A stretch of DNA of 64,000 nt, from the NCBI GenBank assembly GCA_918797485.1, contig CAKKNE010000001.1:4340001-4404000 (forward strand). Direction: 5' to 3'. The stretch comes from Pelagomonas calceolata (Eukaryota). The number at the start of each line of letters is the position of its first letter. The first letter of the stretch is position 1. The notes beneath the pieces were generated by a model that had not been told where the DNA came from, searched no databases, and worked only from the letters and a program-made list of their open reading frames with translations. The position numbers were made by a program, and so were the translations under genes. This document shows, piece by piece, positions 3,151 to 57,043 of the stretch.

Positions 3151-4326
3151 ATGCTCCGCACCGCCCTGCGCCGCGCCGCGGCTGCGCGCCCCCATGCGCG
3201 AAGCCTATCTGCCGAAGCGTCGATCACCGTCGAGTTCCCGGGAGCATACACTGCCTACCTCTCCGAAGAACCCGCCGCAGCAGCGGAAACAACTAAGGCC
3301 GAACTGCTTGAGTACTTCAAGACCATGTACACGATGCGCCGCATGGAACTTATGTGTGACGATCAGTACAAAAAGAGGGAAATCCGAGGCTTCTGCCATT
3401 TGTACGACGGTCAGGAGGCTGTCGGGACCGGCATCCAGGCGGCCCTGTCCCCAGAGGACTCGTGGATCACTTCGTATAGATGCCACTGCATCGCGCTGGC
3501 GCGCGGCGGCAGCGTCGAGGGCGTTCTCGCGGAATTAATGGGCCGATCACATGGCCAGACGGGCGGCATAGGGGGCTCCATGCACTTCTACAACAAAAAG
3601 GAAAACTTCTTCGGCGGGCAGGGCATCGTCGGCGCGCAGGTGCCGGTGGGCACGGGTCTAGCCTTCGCGAACAAGTACAAGACGCCCCTGGGCGAGCCGA
3701 TGCCGGTGGCGATCGGCTGCTACGGCGACGGCGCGGCGAACCAGGGCCAGATCTGGGAGTCCATGAACATGGCTGCTTTGTGGAAATTACCGATGATCTT
3801 CTGCATCGAGAACAACCAGTACGGCATGGGCACGTCGATCGCTCGCCACAGTTGCAACAACGACTACTACACCATGGGAAACGTCATTGCCGGGTTAAAA
3901 ATGGATGGCATGAACGTGCTGTCAGTGCGCGAGGGCATGAAACACGTGCGGGACTACGTCTCCCAGGGCAACGGGCCGATGGTCGTCGAGATGTCGACGT
4001 ATAGATACCACGGCCATAGCATGTCCGACCCAGGCAAGATCTACCGCGACGGGGCCGAGGTCAAGGCCATGAGGGAGAATAACGATCCGATCAAGAACGT
4101 GAGGCAGTTGCTCCTGGGGCACACGGACGCCACCGAAGATGAATTGAATACGATTGAGAAGAACATCAGGGCGGAGGTCGAGGCCGCGCGCGACCGGGCA
4201 TTGGCTGGGAGCACGCCTTCGTCAACCGACGACCTCGTGCGGAACATCTATCTTGATGAACACGGCAAGGACGTGCCGCAGAGCTATATCCGCCTGCCCG
4301 ACTACGAGAAGTCTATTCGCGCTTAG
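3151..4326 (+). CDS. PDHA1: Mitochondrial pyruvate dehydrogenase E1 alpha, copy 2 (intronless, 391 aa)
   Basis: Tandem paralog of copy 1. Start placed at the ATG at 3151 (MLRTALRRAAAAR) by alignment with copy 1. Same ThDP and phosphorylation-loop motifs. Confidence 0.95.
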   Translation: MLRTALRRAAAARPHARSLSAEASITVEFPGAYTAYLSEEPAAAAETTKAELLEYFKTMYTMRRMELMCDDQYKKREIRGFCHLYDGQEAVGTGIQAALSPEDSWITSYRCHCIALARGGSVEGVLAELMGRSHGQTGGIGGSMHFYNKKENFFGGQGIVGAQVPVGTGLAFANKYKTPLGEPMPVAIGCYGDGAANQGQIWESMNMAALWKLPMIFCIENNQYGMGTSIARHSCNNDYYTMGNVIAGLKMDGMNVLSVREGMKHVRDYVSQGNGPMVVEMSTYRYHGHSMSDPGKIYRDGAEVKAMRENNDPIKNVRQLLLGHTDATEDELNTIEKNIRAEVEAARDRALAGSTPSSTDDLVRNIYLDEHGKDVPQSYIRLPDYEKSIRA

Positions 4327-46560: not shown

Positions 46561-47967
46561 TCTGTTCCGAGCGTTTCTCCGCGTACGCAGCTTCGCCGAC
46601 GCAAGAGTTAGTCTAGCGTTCGTGACCGCTTAAGTACTCTCTCTCTCCTCCAGTGGAGTGAATTGCCCGGCCGAGACGCGGCGCTGGGCGATTGATTGCG
46701 GCGCGTCGGCGGGGTTAACAGTGGCTCGTTCCGGTGTGGGATTACCTGTTAATCACCGGTGGCGTCGGCCAGGCGGAGCGGCGTAGCGGCGGGCCGCAGA
46801 CAGAGAGCGATGCTAAATCAAAATGGGCCAGTTTACGTCGTCCGCTTCAGAGCGTCGCCGCGTGGCCGCGGTTGGCCTGTTCTGAAGTTCACGTATCGCA
46901 GAGGTGCCCGTATGCCCAGGTCTCGCCAAGCGCCCAATCACCCCAATCACGCAAGCTCCCGGAGCAAGCACAAGGCTTGCCTATTTTTTAGCTATTAATT
47001 AAATCGGTCCGTTTGGCCCAAACCCGAACCTTCGAAATTCCCCTTTTGCTCGGCGCACGCGGCATGGTTGCAGCTTCGGCCGCGCAGGCGTCGTTTCGGG
47101 TCCCTTGGCTTGCGCCTCGTCGCTTACAGCGCTTAAAACGGTGCCGGATTCGCTCGTATTCGAACCTGGGCTCTGCGACGCGAGGCTCCGTAACGCGCCG
47201 CGCTCGCCGCTGAGGGGCGCGCGGGCCGCGCTGACGGCGCGGAGGGGAGGCCCAGGGTCATGTGCGTCGACGCTGCGACCGGCGGCTCCCCTAGGTCTAC
47301 GGCCGGCGACATATCCGTCGGGGCCGAAACGCCGGTTTCGGTCGGACGCGGCCGACGCAGCAGGAGCTGCATTACGGCTGGACGCGACGGTGCCGCGCGA
47401 AGCGTCGCATGTCGGCCGGCAGTCCGACGGCCCGTGAAGGTCGGCGGTGACCGAGGGTCACTTTCCCGCCGTGACCATGGCCTACGAGCGCGAGAAACGG
47501 GTCGCGCGGCGCGCGGGCGGCGACTTCGAGGCGCGGCTCCACGTCGTCGAGCTGGCGACGCGTCGCGTACTGTTCGGGCTCGAGTGAGGGCCACTCGAAG
47601 TGCATCCAAATCCGCGCGGAACGGGTCGCGGTTTCATGACGGTCCCGGCGGAGTCGTTCTGAGGAGCGTGCGTCTGTGCGGAGCAACGTCGGGTGACGGA
47701 AGCCCCACCGCAAGCTGTAGAAACCGCTCGGGTACTTACGGGAGTCGATCGGCCTTGGGCGGGCCGAGGCCGCGAGGGTGTTTTCGGGCGACGGCGTCGG
47801 GCCACGTACTGGCCGTCTTCGCGCCGCAAACCCGTCCCGCGGCCATGGGCTCGTCGGAAGACCGTGGCGCGCGGCTTTGGCAGGGCCGGGCCGCCGCCGC
47901 GCGCGGGGGCCGCGCCCTCTGTAGTTGTGACCCCACTAATTGTATAGAAAGACGTCACAAGAACAGT

Positions 47968-50289
47968 TTAATCGGCTGGTATGTAGCCAGCCATGCGGCC
48001 GGATTTCGTTGGGCGTTGGTAGATAGGCTCTGGTGGTGGCGTTGGCGGCGGCGGTGGCGGCTCGACGATTGGTGGCGGCGCGGGCGCGGGAACAGGAGCT
48101 GGCGGCGGCGTAGGAGCGGGCGCGGGCGCGGGCGCGGCGCGACCGGCCGGCGGGTTCGAGTAGAGCTGTGTAAAGGCCATGGGATCGTAAACTCGGGTGG
48201 CGGCGCGCGGCGGCGGCGCCTCGGCGGCGATGGTCGCGAGGCCCGCGCCGCGCGCTAACGCGTTGATGGTGTGTGTGGAGATCTCCAGCTCTAGGTGGCC
48301 GCGGTCTCCCACGGCGAAGAGCTCCGGGCGCTTCAGCAGGCTCCGCTGGGACGCCATGCGTCGGCACGCGAGGCGCTCCGCCGCGTCGCGACACGCGACG
48401 ACGAGCGCGTCGCCCGGCGACCGCGAGAGGTAGTCCGCGCGCACGGTCTGCGTCGTGGCGCCGAGGCCCAAGCAGCCCGGCCGCATGACGTGGGTCTCGA
48501 GGAGCATCGCGGCCGTCGCCGTCTGGCGGGCGGCCGGCGCATCTGGAAACAGAGCCTCGGACGCCAGCTTTGTCGCCGTGGCCTCGTCGACCCGCGCGCG
48601 CGCGAGGGCCGCGTCGTAGGCCGCCTGCTCTCGCTCGACGGCGTCCGCGGAGGCCTGGGCTTCCGCGCGCGCCGCGACCTTCCGCGGGTGGTTGTCTGGC
48701 AAAGACCACCAGAGCAGCGAAGCGTCGGACATGCGCTTGCTCGACGCGAGGCGCCCGTCGATGGCCGTGTCCAGCTCGCCTCGGGCCACAAAACACAACC
48801 AGACGTTCGTCGGCTTCGTGACGGGCCTCGCAAGTAGGAAGTGTCGCGGCACGTGCGTCTTGAGCCGCGCGGCGAGCGCCAGCGCGTGGGACACGGCGTC
48901 ACCGGCCCATGCCATCGCGCAGCGGGGCGGCATCCCCGCCGCCAGGTGACCGGAGATCAAAACGACGGTGAACTTCAGGCCAATACCCTTGCTCGCGACC
49001 GTCGTCGAGCCGCCGTCGTGGATGATGCAGAAGTTCTCGCACCGGCGGGCGACCTTGCCGAGCGCCTGGGACCGGATACAGTCGAGGACGCGCAGGGCCT
49101 GGTGTCCCCACGACCCCGAGAACTTCATCTCCTTCGTCGCGCACTTGTCCCGTAGGACAGCCGTCGCCTTGCTCGCGGAGAGCCCGTACGAGGTCAGCAG
49201 GCGGTCCAGCTCGACGATATGGACCACGGGGATCGGCGTCCGCCCGTTCAGTAACGCGTCCGTGGGCAGACCGTCCGTAGGCTGGCGCCGCGCCAGCACG
49301 GCGGCCGCCGTGGCGGCGGCGACGTCTCGCCGTAGGCCGAGAAGCGCTCGTCGAAAGTCGACGATGGGCAAGTTGGACGGAAGCATCGGGAGCCACCCGT
49401 TCGACGCCGCGGCGCGGTCTTTGTAGGTCTTGCGCGCGGCTCGAATGGCTCGGGCCGCTGGTCTCGTGACCCTCCGTTGATTCGGCACCGCGTCCGCGAA
49501 GATCTCCTCGAGTTGCGACCGCGTCATTGCCCAGCCCGTATTCACAAAGTAACGCCGCGCCTCGGCTTCGGCGCGGCCCACGTTCCAGCGTTTTTCCAGG
49601 GCGTGTAGCACAAATTCGTAGGCGGCGGCGGCCTCGAGCGGCGCGCAGACCGACGACGCCGTCGCGAGCGGCGCGGCGCCCGGCGCCTCGGGCGGGACCG
49701 GCGCGATCACGGCGAGCCCTGGTCTTCCGCTCCGCGGCGCGCCCGCGGCCGACGCGGCCGGCGCCCGGGCAACAGGTTGCTGCTGGCGCTGGGCGCCGGT
49801 CGCGGTGGCCTGAGACCGCTTCGGCGCGGTCGTGCGGCCGTCGCGCGCGTTTGGCGCGATCTCGCCCAGCGACTGGCGCCGGGGCGTGGCCGCCGCCCGT
49901 GTTCCGGAAGCGGCAGGCGCGCCCGCGGGTGTAGGCGTCTGCCCCGGGGCGCGCGGCGCGTTCTCGTCGACGCCGCCGCAGCGCGCGAGCGCTCGACTCA
50001 GAACGGCGCGCGTGGCGTCCCAGCAGCGCGTCGTGCTGTTCGTATGAAAGTCCGCCCCGCTCGCCATCACCTCGCCGGGAAAGTTTGCGCCGCACTCCTT
50101 GGAGTGACTTTGTCTGCAAAACCACGACATCCACGCGCTGTAGGCGCCGGGCGAACTGGTGTTCAGTCGCGCCGCGTCGAGGGACACGAGGAGGGCCTGG
50201 CAGCGGTCCTTAGCCCTCATCCGCTGCGGCAGGTCTACGAGCTGCGGGCTGGCGCCAGGACTGAACGGCGTCCCGCTTCGGAGTGCCAT
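47968..50289 (-). CDS. Transposon ORF A (773 aa), carrying a candidate first catalytic Asp strand of a hAT-like transposase
   Basis: Long open frame. QALRVLDCIRSQALGKVARRCENFCIIHDGGST...LKFTVVLISGH resembles the hAT helix plus beta1 (D1) plus beta2. Pro-rich C-terminus. Confidence 0.7.
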   Translation of the reverse strand: MALRSGTPFSPGASPQLVDLPQRMRAKDRCQALLVSLDAARLNTSSPGAYSAWMSWFCRQSHSKECGANFPGEVMASGADFHTNSTTRCWDATRAVLSRALARCGGVDENAPRAPGQTPTPAGAPAASGTRAAATPRRQSLGEIAPNARDGRTTAPKRSQATATGAQRQQQPVARAPAASAAGAPRSGRPGLAVIAPVPPEAPGAAPLATASSVCAPLEAAAAYEFVLHALEKRWNVGRAEAEARRYFVNTGWAMTRSQLEEIFADAVPNQRRVTRPAARAIRAARKTYKDRAAASNGWLPMLPSNLPIVDFRRALLGLRRDVAAATAAAVLARRQPTDGLPTDALLNGRTPIPVVHIVELDRLLTSYGLSASKATAVLRDKCATKEMKFSGSWGHQALRVLDCIRSQALGKVARRCENFCIIHDGGSTTVASKGIGLKFTVVLISGHLAAGMPPRCAMAWAGDAVSHALALAARLKTHVPRHFLLARPVTKPTNVWLCFVARGELDTAIDGRLASSKRMSDASLLWWSLPDNHPRKVAARAEAQASADAVEREQAAYDAALARARVDEATATKLASEALFPDAPAARQTATAAMLLETHVMRPGCLGLGATTQTVRADYLSRSPGDALVVACRDAAERLACRRMASQRSLLKRPELFAVGDRGHLELEISTHTINALARGAGLATIAAEAPPPRAATRVYDPMAFTQLYSNPPAGRAAPAPAPAPTPPPAPVPAPAPPPIVEPPPPPPTPPPEPIYQRPTKSGRMAGYIPAD

Positions 50290-50508
50290 GGGTCACAGAG
50301 CCGCCGCTACGCACAAATGGCCCCCCAGCGGGGCCCCTGCGGCCGTGAGAGCTGACAACGGAGAGAGCAAATACCCGTCCCGAGTCAAACGGCCGCGCGG
50401 AGCACGCAGGCTTCGACAGAGGCGTCCGAAGGACGCGTCTGAACGCGTGGCTTCGTCGTTGCTGCCGAACGGGAGGCAGGAAAAAATGAGGCCAAGCTTT
50501 GCAGGACA

Positions 50509-53500
50509 ATGCAGGACCCCACCGACGCTCCTGAGGCACCGGGGTACGAAGTGCGAGTCGTAGTCGTCGGTCCGAACGTCGTGCTACGCCTGAAAGCCAT
50601 CCCTAGTTGGCCTGTGTCGTTTCTGAAGCAGGTCCTAGCCAATGCTCTCGTGGAGATTGCGGAGTTGCCCGGCCTCGAAACAGCCGAAAATGTGGTCCCG
50701 AGGATGCGCCTTGGGCGCCTGGAGTACAGCTTCAACGACGCCAACCAGCTTTGGATGTATGGACTGGGCACGGCTCCGGGACGGCCGCTCTGGATCGAGC
50801 TGCGCGGCGTCGGCGCGCAGTCTTATACCGTGGGTTCGAACGAGCCGGGCGAGTCCAGCTTCTGGGCGCCTCTGGCCGGGCGCGTCCATCGAGGCGGCAC
50901 CGAGACCGGCCAGAGCATTACCGACAACATCGTCGAGGCGTGCGACGCCGTTCTAGGTACCGAAGAGATGGACTGGGTTCTGGCGGAAACGGTGGCGGTC
51001 ACGGCGGACGGCGCGGCCACCGCTCAAAAAGCGCGGTACTGGTTGGAAGCGATGAAGGCCAACGGGTCCACGGAAGCTAGCTCTGGAGTTATGGGCATCG
51101 TGGCCGTCCGCGTCCGCGACGCGCCCCTGCGCGACGACGATCCTCCGCAGGTATGTGGCTGCCACATCGTGCACGACGGTGTGTGCTACGCATGTGTGGC
51201 CGGCTCGCATCGCCACCCGACGTGGAACCGCCAGAACAACAATTCGGTCCTCGTTTACAACCTCGAGTACGTCGCCCCGTGTAAACGGAACTTCGACGTG
51301 TCGCCGCGACGCCGCGACGGCGTCCGCGCGACGCCACGCCACGAAGACGCCGCGCGCAACTTCAATGAGAGCGCGCCGCTACGGATTGGCGCACGCGCGC
51401 GTCCGACGCGAGGCCGACGCAGGCATGTTTCCAACTATCTCCACAACAACTTCCCCGAGCTCGAGCTCGAGGGCATCATCCCGTACTGCCCCATGGGCCA
51501 AGAAACGCGCTGGGGCACGTTCATCTCCGTAGCGTGCTACCTCGTCTCGTTTCGCTCCCTGCTCATCGCGGCCGTCCGGGGCCTCTTCGCGCGGCGCGGA
51601 ACCACCAGCGTCGCGTCCGACGCGAACGCCCGGCTCCTGGAGGTCATGCTCACGGACCCCTCCATGTACATGCAGCTCGTGGTCCTCGCGGAGTTCGGCT
51701 TAGGCGTCGCGATGCCTTTTATTATGTGGATGCAGCAACGGCACGGCCACCGCGCGATGGTCGCCCCACCGGCGTTCAAGCTCGAGTCGCCTTCACATTG
51801 GGAGTCACACTCCCCGCCGTCGACGCGACGGCGCGATCGCCCTGACTGCGTCCGTTCGAATGCTCGGGGTTTTCCAGGACCGCGGTCGACGTACCACAGG
51901 AGATCCACTCCCAAATCCTCAAGCACCTCACATTGTGTGGGAGCGTGCTCGCAGAGCCCGCCAATTTCTTCGCGAACGCGTACCACGAGGCCGCGGCCGT
52001 CGGGTTCTCCGCCGCGGCGCTCGCCGCGGTCGTCAAGAGCATCGTCCAGCCCTACGAGAAGTACATCTCGAACCGCCTCTCGTTCTGGTTTCGCTTGCCC
52101 TTCGCCTGGCCGCTCCTCTGCGACGAGGACTACGGCCTCGGCTTCGCCAAGGCCCTCGTGGACTTGGTCGCGAAAGGGGTCCTCAAGGGCGTCACGGGCA
52201 CCAAGGTCGACCAGTGCGGCATCCTCGGCGACCAGGCCCTCTGGGGCATGGTCTGCCGCTTCGCCGAGGGCCACGAGGCCCTCGCGGAGGAGGCCCGCGA
52301 CAGAGTCATTCTTACACCGCGGCCCGCGCCATCGACCATGCCTGCTCGATCTCTCCGCACTCACACACAAAAACGCGACGCGCGCGCGCGACGCGCGCGC
52401 GCACGCCTCGAAAAACGCCACCGCGACGCGCGGCTTCCCCCGCCCGAGGCGCGGCCGGCCATCACCGCGACGTCGCGCAGGTCGTCTCCGCCATCATCAA
52501 GGTCTTCGACCACATCCCCATCCACTCGGCGCTCGCGGAGATCGCCGTCAAGGCGTGCCGCAACGCGGACATCAACGAGCTCCTGCACCAGGTCGGCTTC
52601 GGCGCCGCCATGCGACGCGCCCTCCTCGAGTTCCGGCTCGACGATTTTGTCACGGAGAAGGCCGCGTCCGACGCGCGCCGCGACCTCACGCGCCAGGATC
52701 TCGACCGGCGCTCCGTCTTGGAGAAGCGCCAGGCCGAGGTGCGCGACGCGCTGTGCACCACGCACGAGGCGCTCTTCGGCGACAACGCGGACCCGGTCGC
52801 CGTGTGCGAGCGCCTCGCCCAAGAGAGCAGCGCGTACTACCGCGGCGACGCGGCGTCCGTCGAGGGCCAGCTCGACCGCCTCGGCCTCGACGACGCCGCC
52901 GCGGCGCCCCCGACCAACAGGGAGGCGAGGGAGGCGGCGTTCCAGGCGTCGTCGTGGCGCCTGCTCGAGCCGCTCGCGCCGGTGCTCCTCTTCGTCTTCC
53001 AGCAGCTCGTCCTCGACCGCTGCATCAACAACAGCGACGTTCCGGCGCATCTCGCGTGGGTCCTCGCGCGGGCGCCGGCCGCGGAGGACGACACCCCCGA
53101 CAAGGTGACGTGCCGCTTCTGTTCGCGGGCCTGGACATCGGCACGCGGCGCCCGCGGCGCCTGTGCGCACGTCCTCAAGGACCACATCCACCTCAAGGGC
53201 CCGCGCGCCCTCGGCTTCTTCCAGCTCCTCGTCGGCGACGGCCTCGAAGCGTACGAGCTGCCCGAGACCACCGTCGTCCACGTCTTCGACTACGCCACGG
53301 CCACCCCGCTCACGTTCCTGGACGCCTACGTCGTGCCCAAGGTCCTGCCGGCGCTGATCACGGTCTTCGGCCAGGCGCGGGCCCACCACCAGTCCGACGC
53401 GACCGAGCCGCTGGACCTGGTCGCCGCCCTGCGCGCCCAGTTCCCGCCGGCGCCCCCCGCGAAGCCGCCGACGCGGTCGTACCTCGACGCGCTCGTCGCG

Positions 53501-53764
53501 CGCCACGCCGCCGCCGGAGATGATCTCGAGGAACCGCCCCGAGCCGCCCTCGTGGACGTCGTGAAGTTCCTGCCCGCGCTCGTCATCACGAAGCTCGTCG
53601 GCGCCGCCGACCCAGCCGCGCCGCTGGCGCCGGCCCAAGTCCGGGACCGCGAGACCCTCCTGACGCTCAACGCCGGCGTCAATGAGGACCTGGCGCACCC
53701 CGAGCACCGCGCGCTCACACCTAGCGTGAGCCCGGCCGACCGCTTCCCGGCCGACCGGCCTTAG
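50509..53764 (+). CDS. Transposon ORF B: ubiquitin-like domain, C-terminal part of a hAT-like transposase and a C2H2 finger; join(50509..51266,51423..51759,51900..52304,52481..53764), 927 aa
   Basis: ETGQSI...VAVTADGAA (D2 at 51007), CGCH, ETRWGT, IPIHSALAEIAVK (Glu at 52538) and CRFC...HVLKDH. GT-AG introns 51267-51422, 51760-51899 and 52305-52480 join three frames into one. A possible further in-frame intron lies at 51106-51150. Confidence 0.8.
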
Positions 53765-54853
53765 CTCCCTCCCGCGCGCCTCGTCCAAAGCCCCGTGATC
53801 AAATCCGGCCGGCAAGCGCCCCCGACGGGGGGTTAGACCCGCGCGGGGCCAGTAGGGTAATTGTTGTTTCTTTGAGTACAGCTGTCGGCCACGGTGAGAG
53901 GCGCGCGCGGCCGGCGCGCGCGGTGCTCTCCTCGAGGAAGACTCCGCGACCGCGAACAGCACGATCACGGCCACCGCGGCGCCCGAACTCATTTGCGCCC
54001 TCGACGCCTTCGCCATCGCGGCCGCCGTAGCGCCGCGGCTCCGCCGCCGAGCCCGGCTCACACCCTGGACCGTCGGCGCGGCACGCGCTGGCGCGATTCA
54101 ATCCCCGCAGGAGGCCTCGCCGCCCTCGTCCGCCGTCGCCGCCGCTCCGCCGCAGGGCGCACGCAAAAAGCCCGAGCCGGCGCCGGCGGCCGTTTCGAGG
54201 CGACACACGCTCGCGCGCAGCCGCGGAACCGCTCGCGCCCAGCCCCGGCGACGTGGTCAACCCACGGTATCGGTCCTGGGGTCGCGCGACGCTCCTAGGC
54301 TAAGGCCGGCGGCAGCGCAGGCGTCGCACACGAGAATGGCTCGTTCTCGGCGTCCGCCGCCGCAGATCTCACAAAACTTTGACGGAGGCTCGTCGAGAGG
54401 TCAAAGATGACGATCCCAATCGCTCATCCCTCTACGATGCGCAGCGGCCGTGAACGGGACGTTTTTGTCAAAAGCGAGGCGGCAGCGAGCCGCAGCGAAA
54501 CCACGCAATTTAATTAATAGCTAAAAAATAGGCAAGCACAAGGTTAGACAAGTTAACTTTTTCTTCATCCATGCTTACCGCGACGGACGTATGCTATCTC
54601 AGTTTGATCCAATGGACGGCGTCCCGCGAAACCCGCACCCACCCAAAAAACGCTCGAGCTCAGCGCCAGGCTGTGGGCCTGTGGCCATCCAGCAGCGCTC
54701 CGGACGCGCAGCCGTCGAGGCGAACGGTTCCAAGGGAAATCGTTCGAAGGGCCTCCGTGCGAACGGTTGGCTGTCCGACGGGTAGTACTACCCGAGCTCA
54801 TTGGGCAGCCCCATCACACAACGACCACCGGACGGCACGGCACGTAAACCAGG

Positions 54854-57043
54854 ATGGGCTTCGCCGGCATCGAGAACCCCGCCCCGCCGCCCACCCAAGA
54901 AGAACAAGCGACCTTCGCTAGACTCATCAGAGAGACGCACATGGAGACCACAACGGTAGGTACATTATTGAAAGCAAAAACGTGGCCCGGCCTCCTCTTC
55001 TCCACCCTCACGGAACTCAAGCGCGCCACGAAACAAAAGAAGCTCGACCCGAACTCCTACATGGCCCACGCCTTCCACGAGGACGGCGGCGACTCCGACT
55101 CCGAGGACGAAAAGGCCTCGGCCTTATTGATTACCGACGATAAAGAGGAGGAAAAACAATGTGAATTGGCGTGGGACTGGCCGCGGCGCCGCGACAAGGT
55201 CCTCAAGACCATGGAGGAGAAGATGGCCGTGCCTAACTTGTTGGCGATCGACCTGGTGAACGAATGGACGCGAGCGGCGAAGCTCGAGAACGACTCGATG
55301 AACCGAAGGATGGCGGCCTACATGGCTCGGGAGCGACCAGCACCGAAGTCCTTGAAACCGCGGGATCTGCTACGGTCTTTGTCGGATTTGGCCCTGGCAG
55401 ATGCTACGATGGAGTCTCCAAATGACGCATCAACGGTAGATGTCTTGGTGGGTGCGGCCTGGGCCTTAGATCGAAGTAAAGATGACGCGAAAAGTGCAGC
55501 GATGCACGCGGCCTTCCATGCGGCGGCGTTTGCCTTTGATCATAGGAGGATGCCGCGTTCACCACCTTACTCGGATGATGACGTGTTTGATCTCGCAAGA
55601 CATTTGCTCACTTTAAGGCGGGGCTTCCCCGTGCGGCTCAAGGATGATCCTCGGGACGTGGCGTGTGAAGGTGCACAGGGTGTATTGAGGGAGCTCTTGG
55701 GGTCGGAGTCTCCAGCGGCGCGATGTGCCGCGTGCGCGGCTTTAGCTGATTGTGCGCGCTACGGCGACGGCGCGCGATCACTCGGCCCCGCGCTCGCCGT
55801 GTTTGTGGCGCCGCTCATACCGTCGCCCGCCGTCGCCTGTCGACGGAAAGGTTCACATAGTAAAGGTGCCGGCGACCTCGGACCCTTGTTGGCGTGTGCC
55901 GCTGTTGGAGAATTAGCAGCAAGGGACCATACATCTACAAGACCGTCACTCATAAAAGCCGGGTGCGTCGAGAATCTGGTGCGGGCCATCCTCGACGCTC
56001 TACAAGATTCGAAGGATCTTGGGGGTGATTCGTCAGCGGCATCGCGCTTGGTACCGCGATATGCGTTGAAAGCTTTATGTTTCCTGTGCGAGGACGCGAA
56101 AGCACGACGACGAGCCATTGATGCCGGCGCGGTGGAAGGCTGCAAACGCTTGGTGCAGCGAGATGTTGACTCGAGAAGTTCGACAGTGAGAATTGCCAAG
56201 CGGGACGCTCTACGGTTCCTAGCGTCGTGCATGACCTTCGAGGAGGGCCATTCCCTAGATGTTTGCATGGTGCCGGGAGCTATCCAACTCACTGCTGCGA
56301 AAGAAGTGCAGACGAGGAACGCCGCGTTTAGATCCTTGTTATATATCGCACAACATACGGAAGAACCGAGCTATCTGGTACATGACACGGGCTTGTTAGA
56401 AGCCATGGAGGACGGCCTCAACCAGTACACGCTGCGAGGTACGGTACTAAGGTTACTCTTAGTACTCGCCAAACACCCAGAAGCGCAAGCCGAACTAAAG
56501 AGGTGCGGGTTTGCCGATATAGTAACAGATCAAGCGGAGGACGAGTCGAACAGCATCATGAACAAGGGAATAGCGGTAAGAATTATGTTCACGATGGGCG
56601 AGGAGGCCTTCTTTAATGATGGGTTGGCCTTCGCGTGCGCCGGCAAGGATAAAGATTTCCGATTTGAGGTCAAGGAGTTCGAGAAACTCATTAGGGAGCG
56701 GAAGATGCAGGTCGCGTATCAATGTCGACCGGAGGAGGAGCACATGTTCGAAAAACACCAGTTAAAGGCTTACAAGCGCTTATTTAACATCTACTCGGAG
56801 GGTAGCGGCCAGGAGCGGTCGGTAGATACGAAAACTATAAGGGATCTACTACGAAAATGCTGCGCCGAGTTCAAGGACTGGAAGGCTCGTAGAGCGATGA
56901 CGAAGAAGAACGTGGCGCGCGTCGTCGCGATCTACGACGCGGACGGTTCAGGAGAAATAGAATGGGACGAGTTCCTGAACATCATGCACGACATGACGCA
57001 AGGGAGCTTCTTGGATCGGGTGACGGGCTGGGGCTTCTTCTAA
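54854..57043 (+). CDS. ARM-repeat protein with C-terminal EF-hand(s)
   Basis: Helical ARM-like repeats (LIKAGCVENLV, AIDAGAVEGC) and DADGSGEIEWDEF. Confidence 0.75.
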   Translation: MGFAGIENPAPPPTQEEQATFARLIRETHMETTTVGTLLKAKTWPGLLFSTLTELKRATKQKKLDPNSYMAHAFHEDGGDSDSEDEKASALLITDDKEEEKQCELAWDWPRRRDKVLKTMEEKMAVPNLLAIDLVNEWTRAAKLENDSMNRRMAAYMARERPAPKSLKPRDLLRSLSDLALADATMESPNDASTVDVLVGAAWALDRSKDDAKSAAMHAAFHAAAFAFDHRRMPRSPPYSDDDVFDLARHLLTLRRGFPVRLKDDPRDVACEGAQGVLRELLGSESPAARCAACAALADCARYGDGARSLGPALAVFVAPLIPSPAVACRRKGSHSKGAGDLGPLLACAAVGELAARDHTSTRPSLIKAGCVENLVRAILDALQDSKDLGGDSSAASRLVPRYALKALCFLCEDAKARRRAIDAGAVEGCKRLVQRDVDSRSSTVRIAKRDALRFLASCMTFEEGHSLDVCMVPGAIQLTAAKEVQTRNAAFRSLLYIAQHTEEPSYLVHDTGLLEAMEDGLNQYTLRGTVLRLLLVLAKHPEAQAELKRCGFADIVTDQAEDESNSIMNKGIAVRIMFTMGEEAFFNDGLAFACAGKDKDFRFEVKEFEKLIRERKMQVAYQCRPEEEHMFEKHQLKAYKRLFNIYSEGSGQERSVDTKTIRDLLRKCCAEFKDWKARRAMTKKNVARVVAIYDADGSGEIEWDEFLNIMHDMTQGSFLDRVTGWGFF

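Follow-up and report, generated by a model that had tools for sequence, protein, structure and literature searches.

A ubiquitin-like domain fused to a hAT-like transposase core in a two-gene transposon of Pelagomonas calceolata

A DNA transposon of 7,563 bp (7.6 kb) from Pelagomonas calceolata raises the question of how a transposase can work when its hAT-like core starts with a domain resembling ubiquitin and lacks the first catalytic aspartate. The element occupies positions 46975-54537 of the window, i.e. the complete stretch of 64,000 nucleotides that was analysed (contig CAKKNE010000001.1, positions 4,340,001 to 4,404,000, forward strand). Its ends are terminal inverted repeats (TIRs) of 30 bp that match perfectly (30 of 30 positions identical), and it contains two head-to-head open reading frames (ORFs), ORF A on the minus strand and ORF B on the plus strand, which are 219 nt apart. 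The sequence-only reading that preceded this analysis had proposed a ubiquitin-like (Ubl) domain fused in front of a transposase half, and a reciprocal exchange between the two frames. The fusion is confirmed by four further lineages, while the exchange fails the tests that were run. The argument turns on the following features, where D1 and D2 denote the first and second catalytic aspartate.

50545-50817, plus strand: Ubl (beta-grasp) domain, N-terminal part of ORF B (ATG at 50509), supported by a family profile, hhalign and an alignment-based model.
50818-53764, plus strand: remainder of ORF B, a hAT-like core starting at beta3, with the stop codon at 53762-53764 and four predicted introns.
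47968-50289, minus strand: ORF A (773 aa), in which introns were not seen; it is transcribed (X4 contig colinear up to 50337), annotated as the 750-aa protein P0003 and also open in a marine metagenome contig (L001).
48934-49032, minus strand: D1-like motif FCIIHDGGS (Asp425, codon 49017-49015) with a predicted beta2-like strand, the putative missing RNase H hairpin, recognized by a hAT pattern.
47971-48933, minus strand: C-terminal part of ORF A, from MPPR to a Pro-rich tail, with Ala in place of the Met in L001; no family matched.

Taken alone, the 91 residues translated from 50545-50817 (YEVRVVVVGPN...LWIELRGVGA) matched no Pfam family, no PDB sequence and no Atlas entry. When it was compared pairwise (BLOSUM) with ubiquitins from genome contigs, p was 0.05-0.86 (eight tests, in two modes, with the first four in a set of 26 distinct ubiquitins), and hhalign scores of the single sequence were equalled or exceeded by 57 and 66 of 150 shuffles. 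The single-sequence model had a predicted local distance difference test score (pLDDT) of 47, and fold searches with it found no beta-grasp match. The resemblance of this one sequence to ubiquitin is at chance level. The domain becomes clear only once homologues are included. Unfiltered phmmer with 50509-51756 as query yielded 8 representatives, to which a cluster look-up added at least 29 members, and an alignment of 8 rows was built. When the resulting family profile was compared with PDB, 26 of 28 rows were Ubl proteins (18 ISG15/17, the others including Rad23, Dsk2 and archaeal ubiquitin entries; best E 0.007). Alignment of the family with a 19-sequence Ubl profile by hhalign scored 23.4 (E 7e-4), a value reached by none of 200 column shuffles, and its register is nearly that of the earlier alignment by eye. 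P0009 and P0006, two of the relatives, weakly match Pfam ubiquitin over the equivalent N-terminal stretch (E 0.05 and 0.24).

The alignment-based AlphaFold model has beta-grasp topology, with pLDDT 55-83 over the Ubl domain. Foldseek aligns it to ubiquitin with a probability of 1.00, a template modelling score (target) of 0.86 and a root mean square deviation (rmsd) of 2.0, and VIA aligns it to ISG15/ubiquitin with Z 12.1 and rmsd 1.9 over 77 aligned residues. The domain carries an insertion of about 12 residues after the helix and ends in GA. The search of profiles and structures against ubiquitin-like families, which had been suggested as a check, thus returned Ubl matches together with a predicted beta-grasp fold; this bears out what had been recognized by eye, and profile and model indicate that the Ubl domain of ORF B is real.

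The Ubl domain, or its last third, is contiguous with the core in four other lineages that share 24-35% identity with ORF B: P0006, P0009, P0008 and P0037 (the latter from the cluster of P0010). Alignments run across the junction at residue 103/104 in P0006 (query 55-254) and P0009 (query 26-256). In P0008, the last third of the domain is present and runs into the core, and in P0037 both sides of the junction are kept (GVGP-QAYTVG versus GVGA-QSYTVG in the window). P0005, P0007 and P0012 are fragments that start after D2 and are uninformative on the junction. P0011 is a Ubl-less relative with a D1-like strand of its own, which has the CxxH motif and the Trp in common with ORF B. Because four distant lineages run the Ubl domain into the core, it is an old, integral N-terminal domain of a hAT-like protein family. 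Outside these relatives, neither viral contigs (searched with TIR, ORF B, P0009, P0037, P0006 and ORF A) nor prokaryote contigs gave a match, and a word-based protein search with the ORF B core (564-1796 aa) found no relative.

At the positions of ubiquitin residues 75-76, the window, P0037, P0006, P0009 and P0008 have GA, GP, KP, GP and GA, respectively. The di-glycine is found in none of the five lineages, three of which end the domain in Pro, so the Ubl domain is likely non-cleavable and an integral domain instead of a modifier. At the positions aligned with K29, K48, I44 and V70 of ubiquitin, the window copy has Val, Tyr, Gly and Glu, respectively (the V70 register was set by eye). Because the I44/V70 patch and K29/K48 are missing at the aligned positions, a role as degradation signal becomes less likely, and the domain is probably not a degron. 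Arg occupies the ubiquitin F45 position in all four lineages that cover it, and Glu the V70 position in four of five; it is possible that these two residues form a family-specific binding face. Near-canonical ubiquitin domains in long open frames (238-2675 aa), most without terminal GG, were also encountered in a single bacterial phylum, in 9 of its 401 genomes examined (L122, L125-L139).

Behind the Ubl domain, ORF B shows a strand-helix-strand arrangement with TADGA (D2, 51007), followed by CGCH (His 51163), TRW (Trp 51511) and PIHSALAE (Glu 52538). By its motif, the latter is the putative catalytic Glu. The putative catalytic-Glu exon has no BLAST similarity to P0011; the exon preceding it matches P0011 (E 3e-5) and does not match P0012. 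The core is interrupted by four predicted introns.

51100-51150, plus strand: predicted intron 1, GT-AG, 51 nt, a stretch absent from homologues; no spliced RNA seen.
51267-51422, plus strand: predicted intron 2, GTACGT...GCAG, 156 nt; no spliced RNA seen.
51760-51902, plus strand: predicted intron 3, with unsettled boundaries (21 frame-keeping donor/acceptor pairs).
52293-52480, plus strand: predicted intron 4, with four frame-keeping donors.

Assignment of the core to the hAT type rests on the CxxH motif and Trp shared with P0011 and on Atlas leads. Features of 50818-51756 resemble those of DUF659, ZBED1 RNase-like and DUF4371/FAM200 clusters at 0.78-0.84, which we treat as leads only, and three unnamed eukaryote clusters rank higher (0.89-0.92). 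ORF B and its relatives matched no hAT Pfam domain, no BED finger was detected, and alignment of the core against PDB returned no transposase. Collection of DUF4371 members for a D1 profile yielded none from 401 genomes.

What ORF B lacks is the beta1(D1)-beta2 hairpin, and none of the fragments available for the four relatives shows it either. Upstream of the ORF B start codon a stop follows at 66 nt, and then ORF A on the other strand. A complete DDE triad (Asp-Asp-Glu) in one polypeptide is therefore not found in ORF B. D2, CxxH and W are conserved in the four lineages wherever covered. Such conservation at 24-35% identity implies selection on a presumably catalytic role, so that a D1 would be needed from somewhere.

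A candidate lies in the neighbouring frame. ORF A shows the order helix, FCIIHDGGS with Asp425, strand; its hAT-like stretch stops where that of ORF B starts. It reads ...HLAAG and continues with MPPR, the ATG of which begins at 48933. The hAT D1 pattern has one match in the six frames of the 64-kb window, and this match is in ORF A; among 20000 shuffles of ORF A, 3 matched. We presume FCIIHDGGS to be a hAT D1 motif by this pattern, and judging from the sequence it probably is a true D1. The ORF A/B arrangement is not an assembly error, as it is seen in X1 and X8 contigs, in L001 and in X16. Contigs of X1 and X8 (the latter at a depth of 5.8) run across the 50817 junction with no difference from the window; X1, which may be the window's own source, also spans 48934; and X16 bridges 48934, the junction in ORF A, with 7 differences in 425 nt. 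L001 is 96.8% identical over 47017-50758 and has the identical layout.

We thus arrive at an explanation in which ORF B, with D2 and E behind a Ubl domain, would obtain its missing aspartate from ORF A, the two proteins assembling one hAT-type active site. The ORF A hairpin would insert between beta3 and beta4 of ORF B and complete the RNase H sheet, while the Ubl domain would cap the otherwise open N-terminus of the ORF B half, either as a folding cap or as a docking surface. In its favour, the D1 pattern is matched nowhere in the 64-kb window except in ORF A, inside the same TIRs. That ORF A completes the ORF B active site in trans, making this a naturally split transposase, could well be true, although we stop just short of calling it probable. 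Somewhat more tentatively, we suggest a hAT-like transposon family with its DDE site divided between two head-to-head genes, a two-key system governed by a bidirectional promoter switch.

Several observations weigh against this explanation. The D1 pattern was picked post hoc, after the sequence had been viewed. ORF A matches no hAT Pfam family, and homologues beyond its own alleles were not found in word-based searches (unfiltered HMMER was aimed at ORF B only). The whole of ORF A retrieved only the L001 allele, its C-terminal part retrieved no relative and one low-complexity match, and pieces of ORF A compared with PDB returned no transposase. The D1 region of ORF A has no similarity to that of P0011, as 11-16 of 28-30 other Asp windows score equally. 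Over the core, confidence in the AlphaFold model is low (pLDDT 30-52). The relatives are gene-caller fragments and may have a D1 exon upstream. When the window was compared with L001, the ratio of non-synonymous to synonymous polymorphism (pN/pS) was 1.66 for ORF A (about 42 non-synonymous and 9 synonymous differences) and 2.6 for the Ubl domain (8 and 1); purifying selection is absent in these copies, although ORF A is open in both.

Expression data point in the same direction. In stranded reads (X21 and X22, from one sample, with about 6% of each run read), ORF A had a depth of about 1-13 and the depth over 50478-51585, which includes the Ubl part of the gene, was 0 in both runs, so that ORF A and ORF B are not co-expressed there. 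None of four RNA runs gave a contig covering 50513-50713. X4 contigs are in line with this; their flat depths amount to 362 for ORF A, about 5 for 50824-52108, where they are unspliced, and 910-1092 for 52447-53803. Those of low depth over 50824-52108 retain the predicted introns and may originate from DNA. The 3′ half of ORF B is covered by RNA of the opposite strand.

52417-54355, minus strand: RNA antisense to the ORF B 3′ half, depth 2-46 in stranded X21/X22; orientation was set by the plus-strand host gene at 54854.

The window copy is probably inactive or silenced. In the RNA reads over ORF A, G>C occurs at 48224 and 48227 in nearly all reads; on either side of the two positions these reads end loosely (48204 and 48236), and the changes are due to cross-mapping from another locus, not to editing.

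Among the alternatives, the one that survives best is that ORF B proteins are incomplete and remain uncomplemented, acting as accessory, regulatory or repressor subunits of normal hAT-driven elements, the ORF A motif being a vestige or a chance match. We consider this unlikely, though it is the strongest competitor of a split transposase. It would account for a D1 in ORF A that has no homologue support, for neutral evolution and lack of ORF B expression in the window copy, and for the existence of P0011, a contiguous relative with D1. It is harder to reconcile with the retention of D2, CxxH and W across four lineages as divergent as these, with a D1-like motif that is unique in the window and lies within the same element, and with the perfect TIRs and intact target site duplication (TSD), which indicate fairly recent movement.

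Rather doubtful is a second alternative, according to which the Ubl domain of the relatives is inserted in the beta2-beta3 loop of a long transposase with an overlooked D1 exon, and the window copy was broken by an old inversion (~48934 / ~50510, not 50817). Starts of the relatives come from gene callers, which may break at introns, and neutral evolution as well as the silence of ORF B fit a broken copy. In the cluster of P0010 (18 members), 13 of 15 members listed start together, about 11 residues before Ubl strand 1, and these 11 residues align with the ORF A beta2 strand at rank 2 of 763, albeit with a weak score of 11. The corresponding residues of P0006 and of the window have no such similarity (ranks 209 and 184), and in the P0009 cluster all 14 members listed have their start precisely at Ubl strand 1. 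In addition, the G+C content at third codon positions (GC3) falls from 0.91 to 0.72 across the join that this inversion demands (p 0.0008), no inverted repeat is found at 50510-50550, and the arrangement is common to L001.

It is very improbable that ORF B is self-sufficient, with the Glu that ends Ubl strand 5 (LWIE, LVVE, LVVE, VKVE) replacing D1 and the strand switching into the RNase H sheet. This Glu is present in four of five lineages and lies about 9 residues before the beta2-like YTVG in the window, which is near the D1 spacing of P0011. However, the model packs strand 5 centrally in a complete beta-grasp, P0037 has no acidic residue at this position, and in three lineages a Pro/Ala/Glu-rich linker takes the place where the beta2 strand is expected.

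The exchange proposed by the sequence-only reading would have occurred in this lineage at ~48934/~50817 and would have split a contiguous transposase and a Ubl-GG/MPPR fusion gene. Two of its starting points hold up, namely that the hAT-like stretch of ORF A ends where that of ORF B begins and that GA is found at the 75-76 register. It was also correct that no inverted repeat marks the two junctions (pair scores of 8-9 are reached by 39-63% of element windows). Nor does the microhomology of the junctions (GCGGCG; an 8-bp inverted match) exceed what chance would give. The predicted products are a different matter. An exchange was supposed to restore Ubl-GG followed by MPPR, a continuity that was never seen in homologues as far as the data reach, and the Met concerned is a polymorphism, since L001 reads AAG-APPR where ORF A of the window reads AAG-MPPR. 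It was also supposed to yield a contiguous transposase, whereas the relatives have the Ubl-core order instead. GC3 is continuous across the present junctions (0.91/0.87, p 0.49; 0.72/0.75, p 0.74). Across the proposed ones it is not (p 0.005 and 0.012; p 0.08 and 0.12, hence weaker, at four-fold sites), and this discontinuity may in part reflect a 5′ gradient along ORF B. Among the joints of reads or contigs listed, none links ~48934 to ~50817. Given Ubl-core continuity in four lineages, the lack of GG in all five, Ala in L001, continuous GC3 and the missing repeats and joints, an exchange in this lineage is scarcely credible; one may have taken place in a remote common ancestor, to which nothing points.

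The ends of the element and the region between the two genes were annotated as follows.

46970-46974: left TSD ACAAG (5 bp), by enumeration; CACAAGG (7 bp) with a 29-bp TIR fits equally.
46975-47004, plus strand: left TIR, 30 bp, perfect (30/30 identity).
50290-50508: spacer between the divergent ORFs, 219 nt; the ORF A RNA contig ends at 50337.
54508-54537, minus strand: right TIR, by TIR comparison.
54538-54542: right TSD ACAAG, by enumeration.

The spacer is likely a bidirectional promoter. With perfect TIRs the TSD has a length of 5 or 7 bp, and 8 bp is obtained only if the ends are offset by one base. The length is ambiguous because the end of the TIR is repeated in the left flank (46964-46980), which creates the hairpin GCAAGC-ACAAG-GCTTGC as well as a direct repeat of 12 bp shared with the right junction. 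At 54427-54453 an X1 contig with a depth of 178 carries four linked differences that recur among RNA reads; they suggest a diverged second copy of the right end, and with it at least one more member of the family in the host.

Two host transcripts that diverge from each other flank the element (46942-46960; 54633-54900). Many molecules of the left host gene terminate 15-33 nt short of the TIR, and RNA extends into the element from either side, on the plus strand at 47154-47984 and on the minus strand at 52417-54355. At 50803, X16 and X18 each have one contig with about 90 loose letters before this position and the same consensus; these letters do not match the ORF A junction and are probably a short GC-rich chance match. 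Outside the element, a short pyrimidine-rich motif at 46618-46650 has a summed DNA contig depth of about 14,000, with many different loose ends of RNA reads at 46643-46645, and is a multi-copy sequence common to many transcripts. Elsewhere in the window there is a tandem duplication (1678-2911 and 3151-4326, 78-85% identity).

How does ORF B compare with proteins in which a ubiquitin fold is known? It has an N-terminal ubiquitin fold in a linear fusion in common with ubiquitin-fusion precursors and with substrates of ubiquitin-fusion degradation. Non-cleavable ubiquitin fusions can be degrons dependent on K29/K48, and Ub-G76A is removed inefficiently while G76V resists cleavage (PMC9703124). 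In contrast to these proteins, the five lineages described here are devoid of GG, and the window copy has Val/Tyr at the two lysine positions. Type II Ubl proteins such as Dsk2 and Rad23 also carry an N-terminal beta-grasp domain without di-glycine in a larger protein, and the Dsk2 UBL aligns with our model in VIA (Z 11.9, rmsd 1.6, 74 aligned residues). They differ in that the partner domain here is a transposase core. The I44/V70 patch of ubiquitin serves as a proteasome-receptor surface, and Gly and Glu at these positions suggest that it has been lost from the window copy.

With hAT transposons such as Hermes, the element has in common that it is TIR-bounded with a TSD, that Atlas leads point to hAT-type RNase H clusters, and that a DDE-type core has CxxH and a conserved Trp between D2 and E. 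The latter two features are common to hAT and MULE transposases and needed for activity (PMC5225508). Hermes is about 3 kb long with one transposase of 612 aa and an 8-bp TSD (PMC10368747). The Pelagomonas element differs in having 7.6 kb, two divergent ORFs and a TSD of 5 or 7 bp, and in a D2/E chain that has no D1, starts with a Ubl domain and in which no BED finger was detected.

An architecture of Ubl domain plus hAT-like core was not found in the literature searched, which mostly excluded subscription journals. At the level of the Ubl fusion, a variant of hAT-like elements not described in that literature is established; what is well supported is a hAT-like lineage with a Ubl domain in place of the DNA-binding region and the first catalytic strand. 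If ORF A indeed completes the active site, nature would here have divided the RNase H fold of a DDE transposase, with the triad built from two chains. It would offer a natural model for AND-gated transposases and would explain why such elements escape annotation, as no piece has a Pfam match. PIF/Harbinger, CACTA, MuDR and ProtoRAG are two-gene cut-and-paste elements, a single pair of TIRs enclosing the genes for both proteins. To our knowledge, the whole DDE triad resides in one chain in each of them, whereas in the element described here the triad would be divided between two genes.

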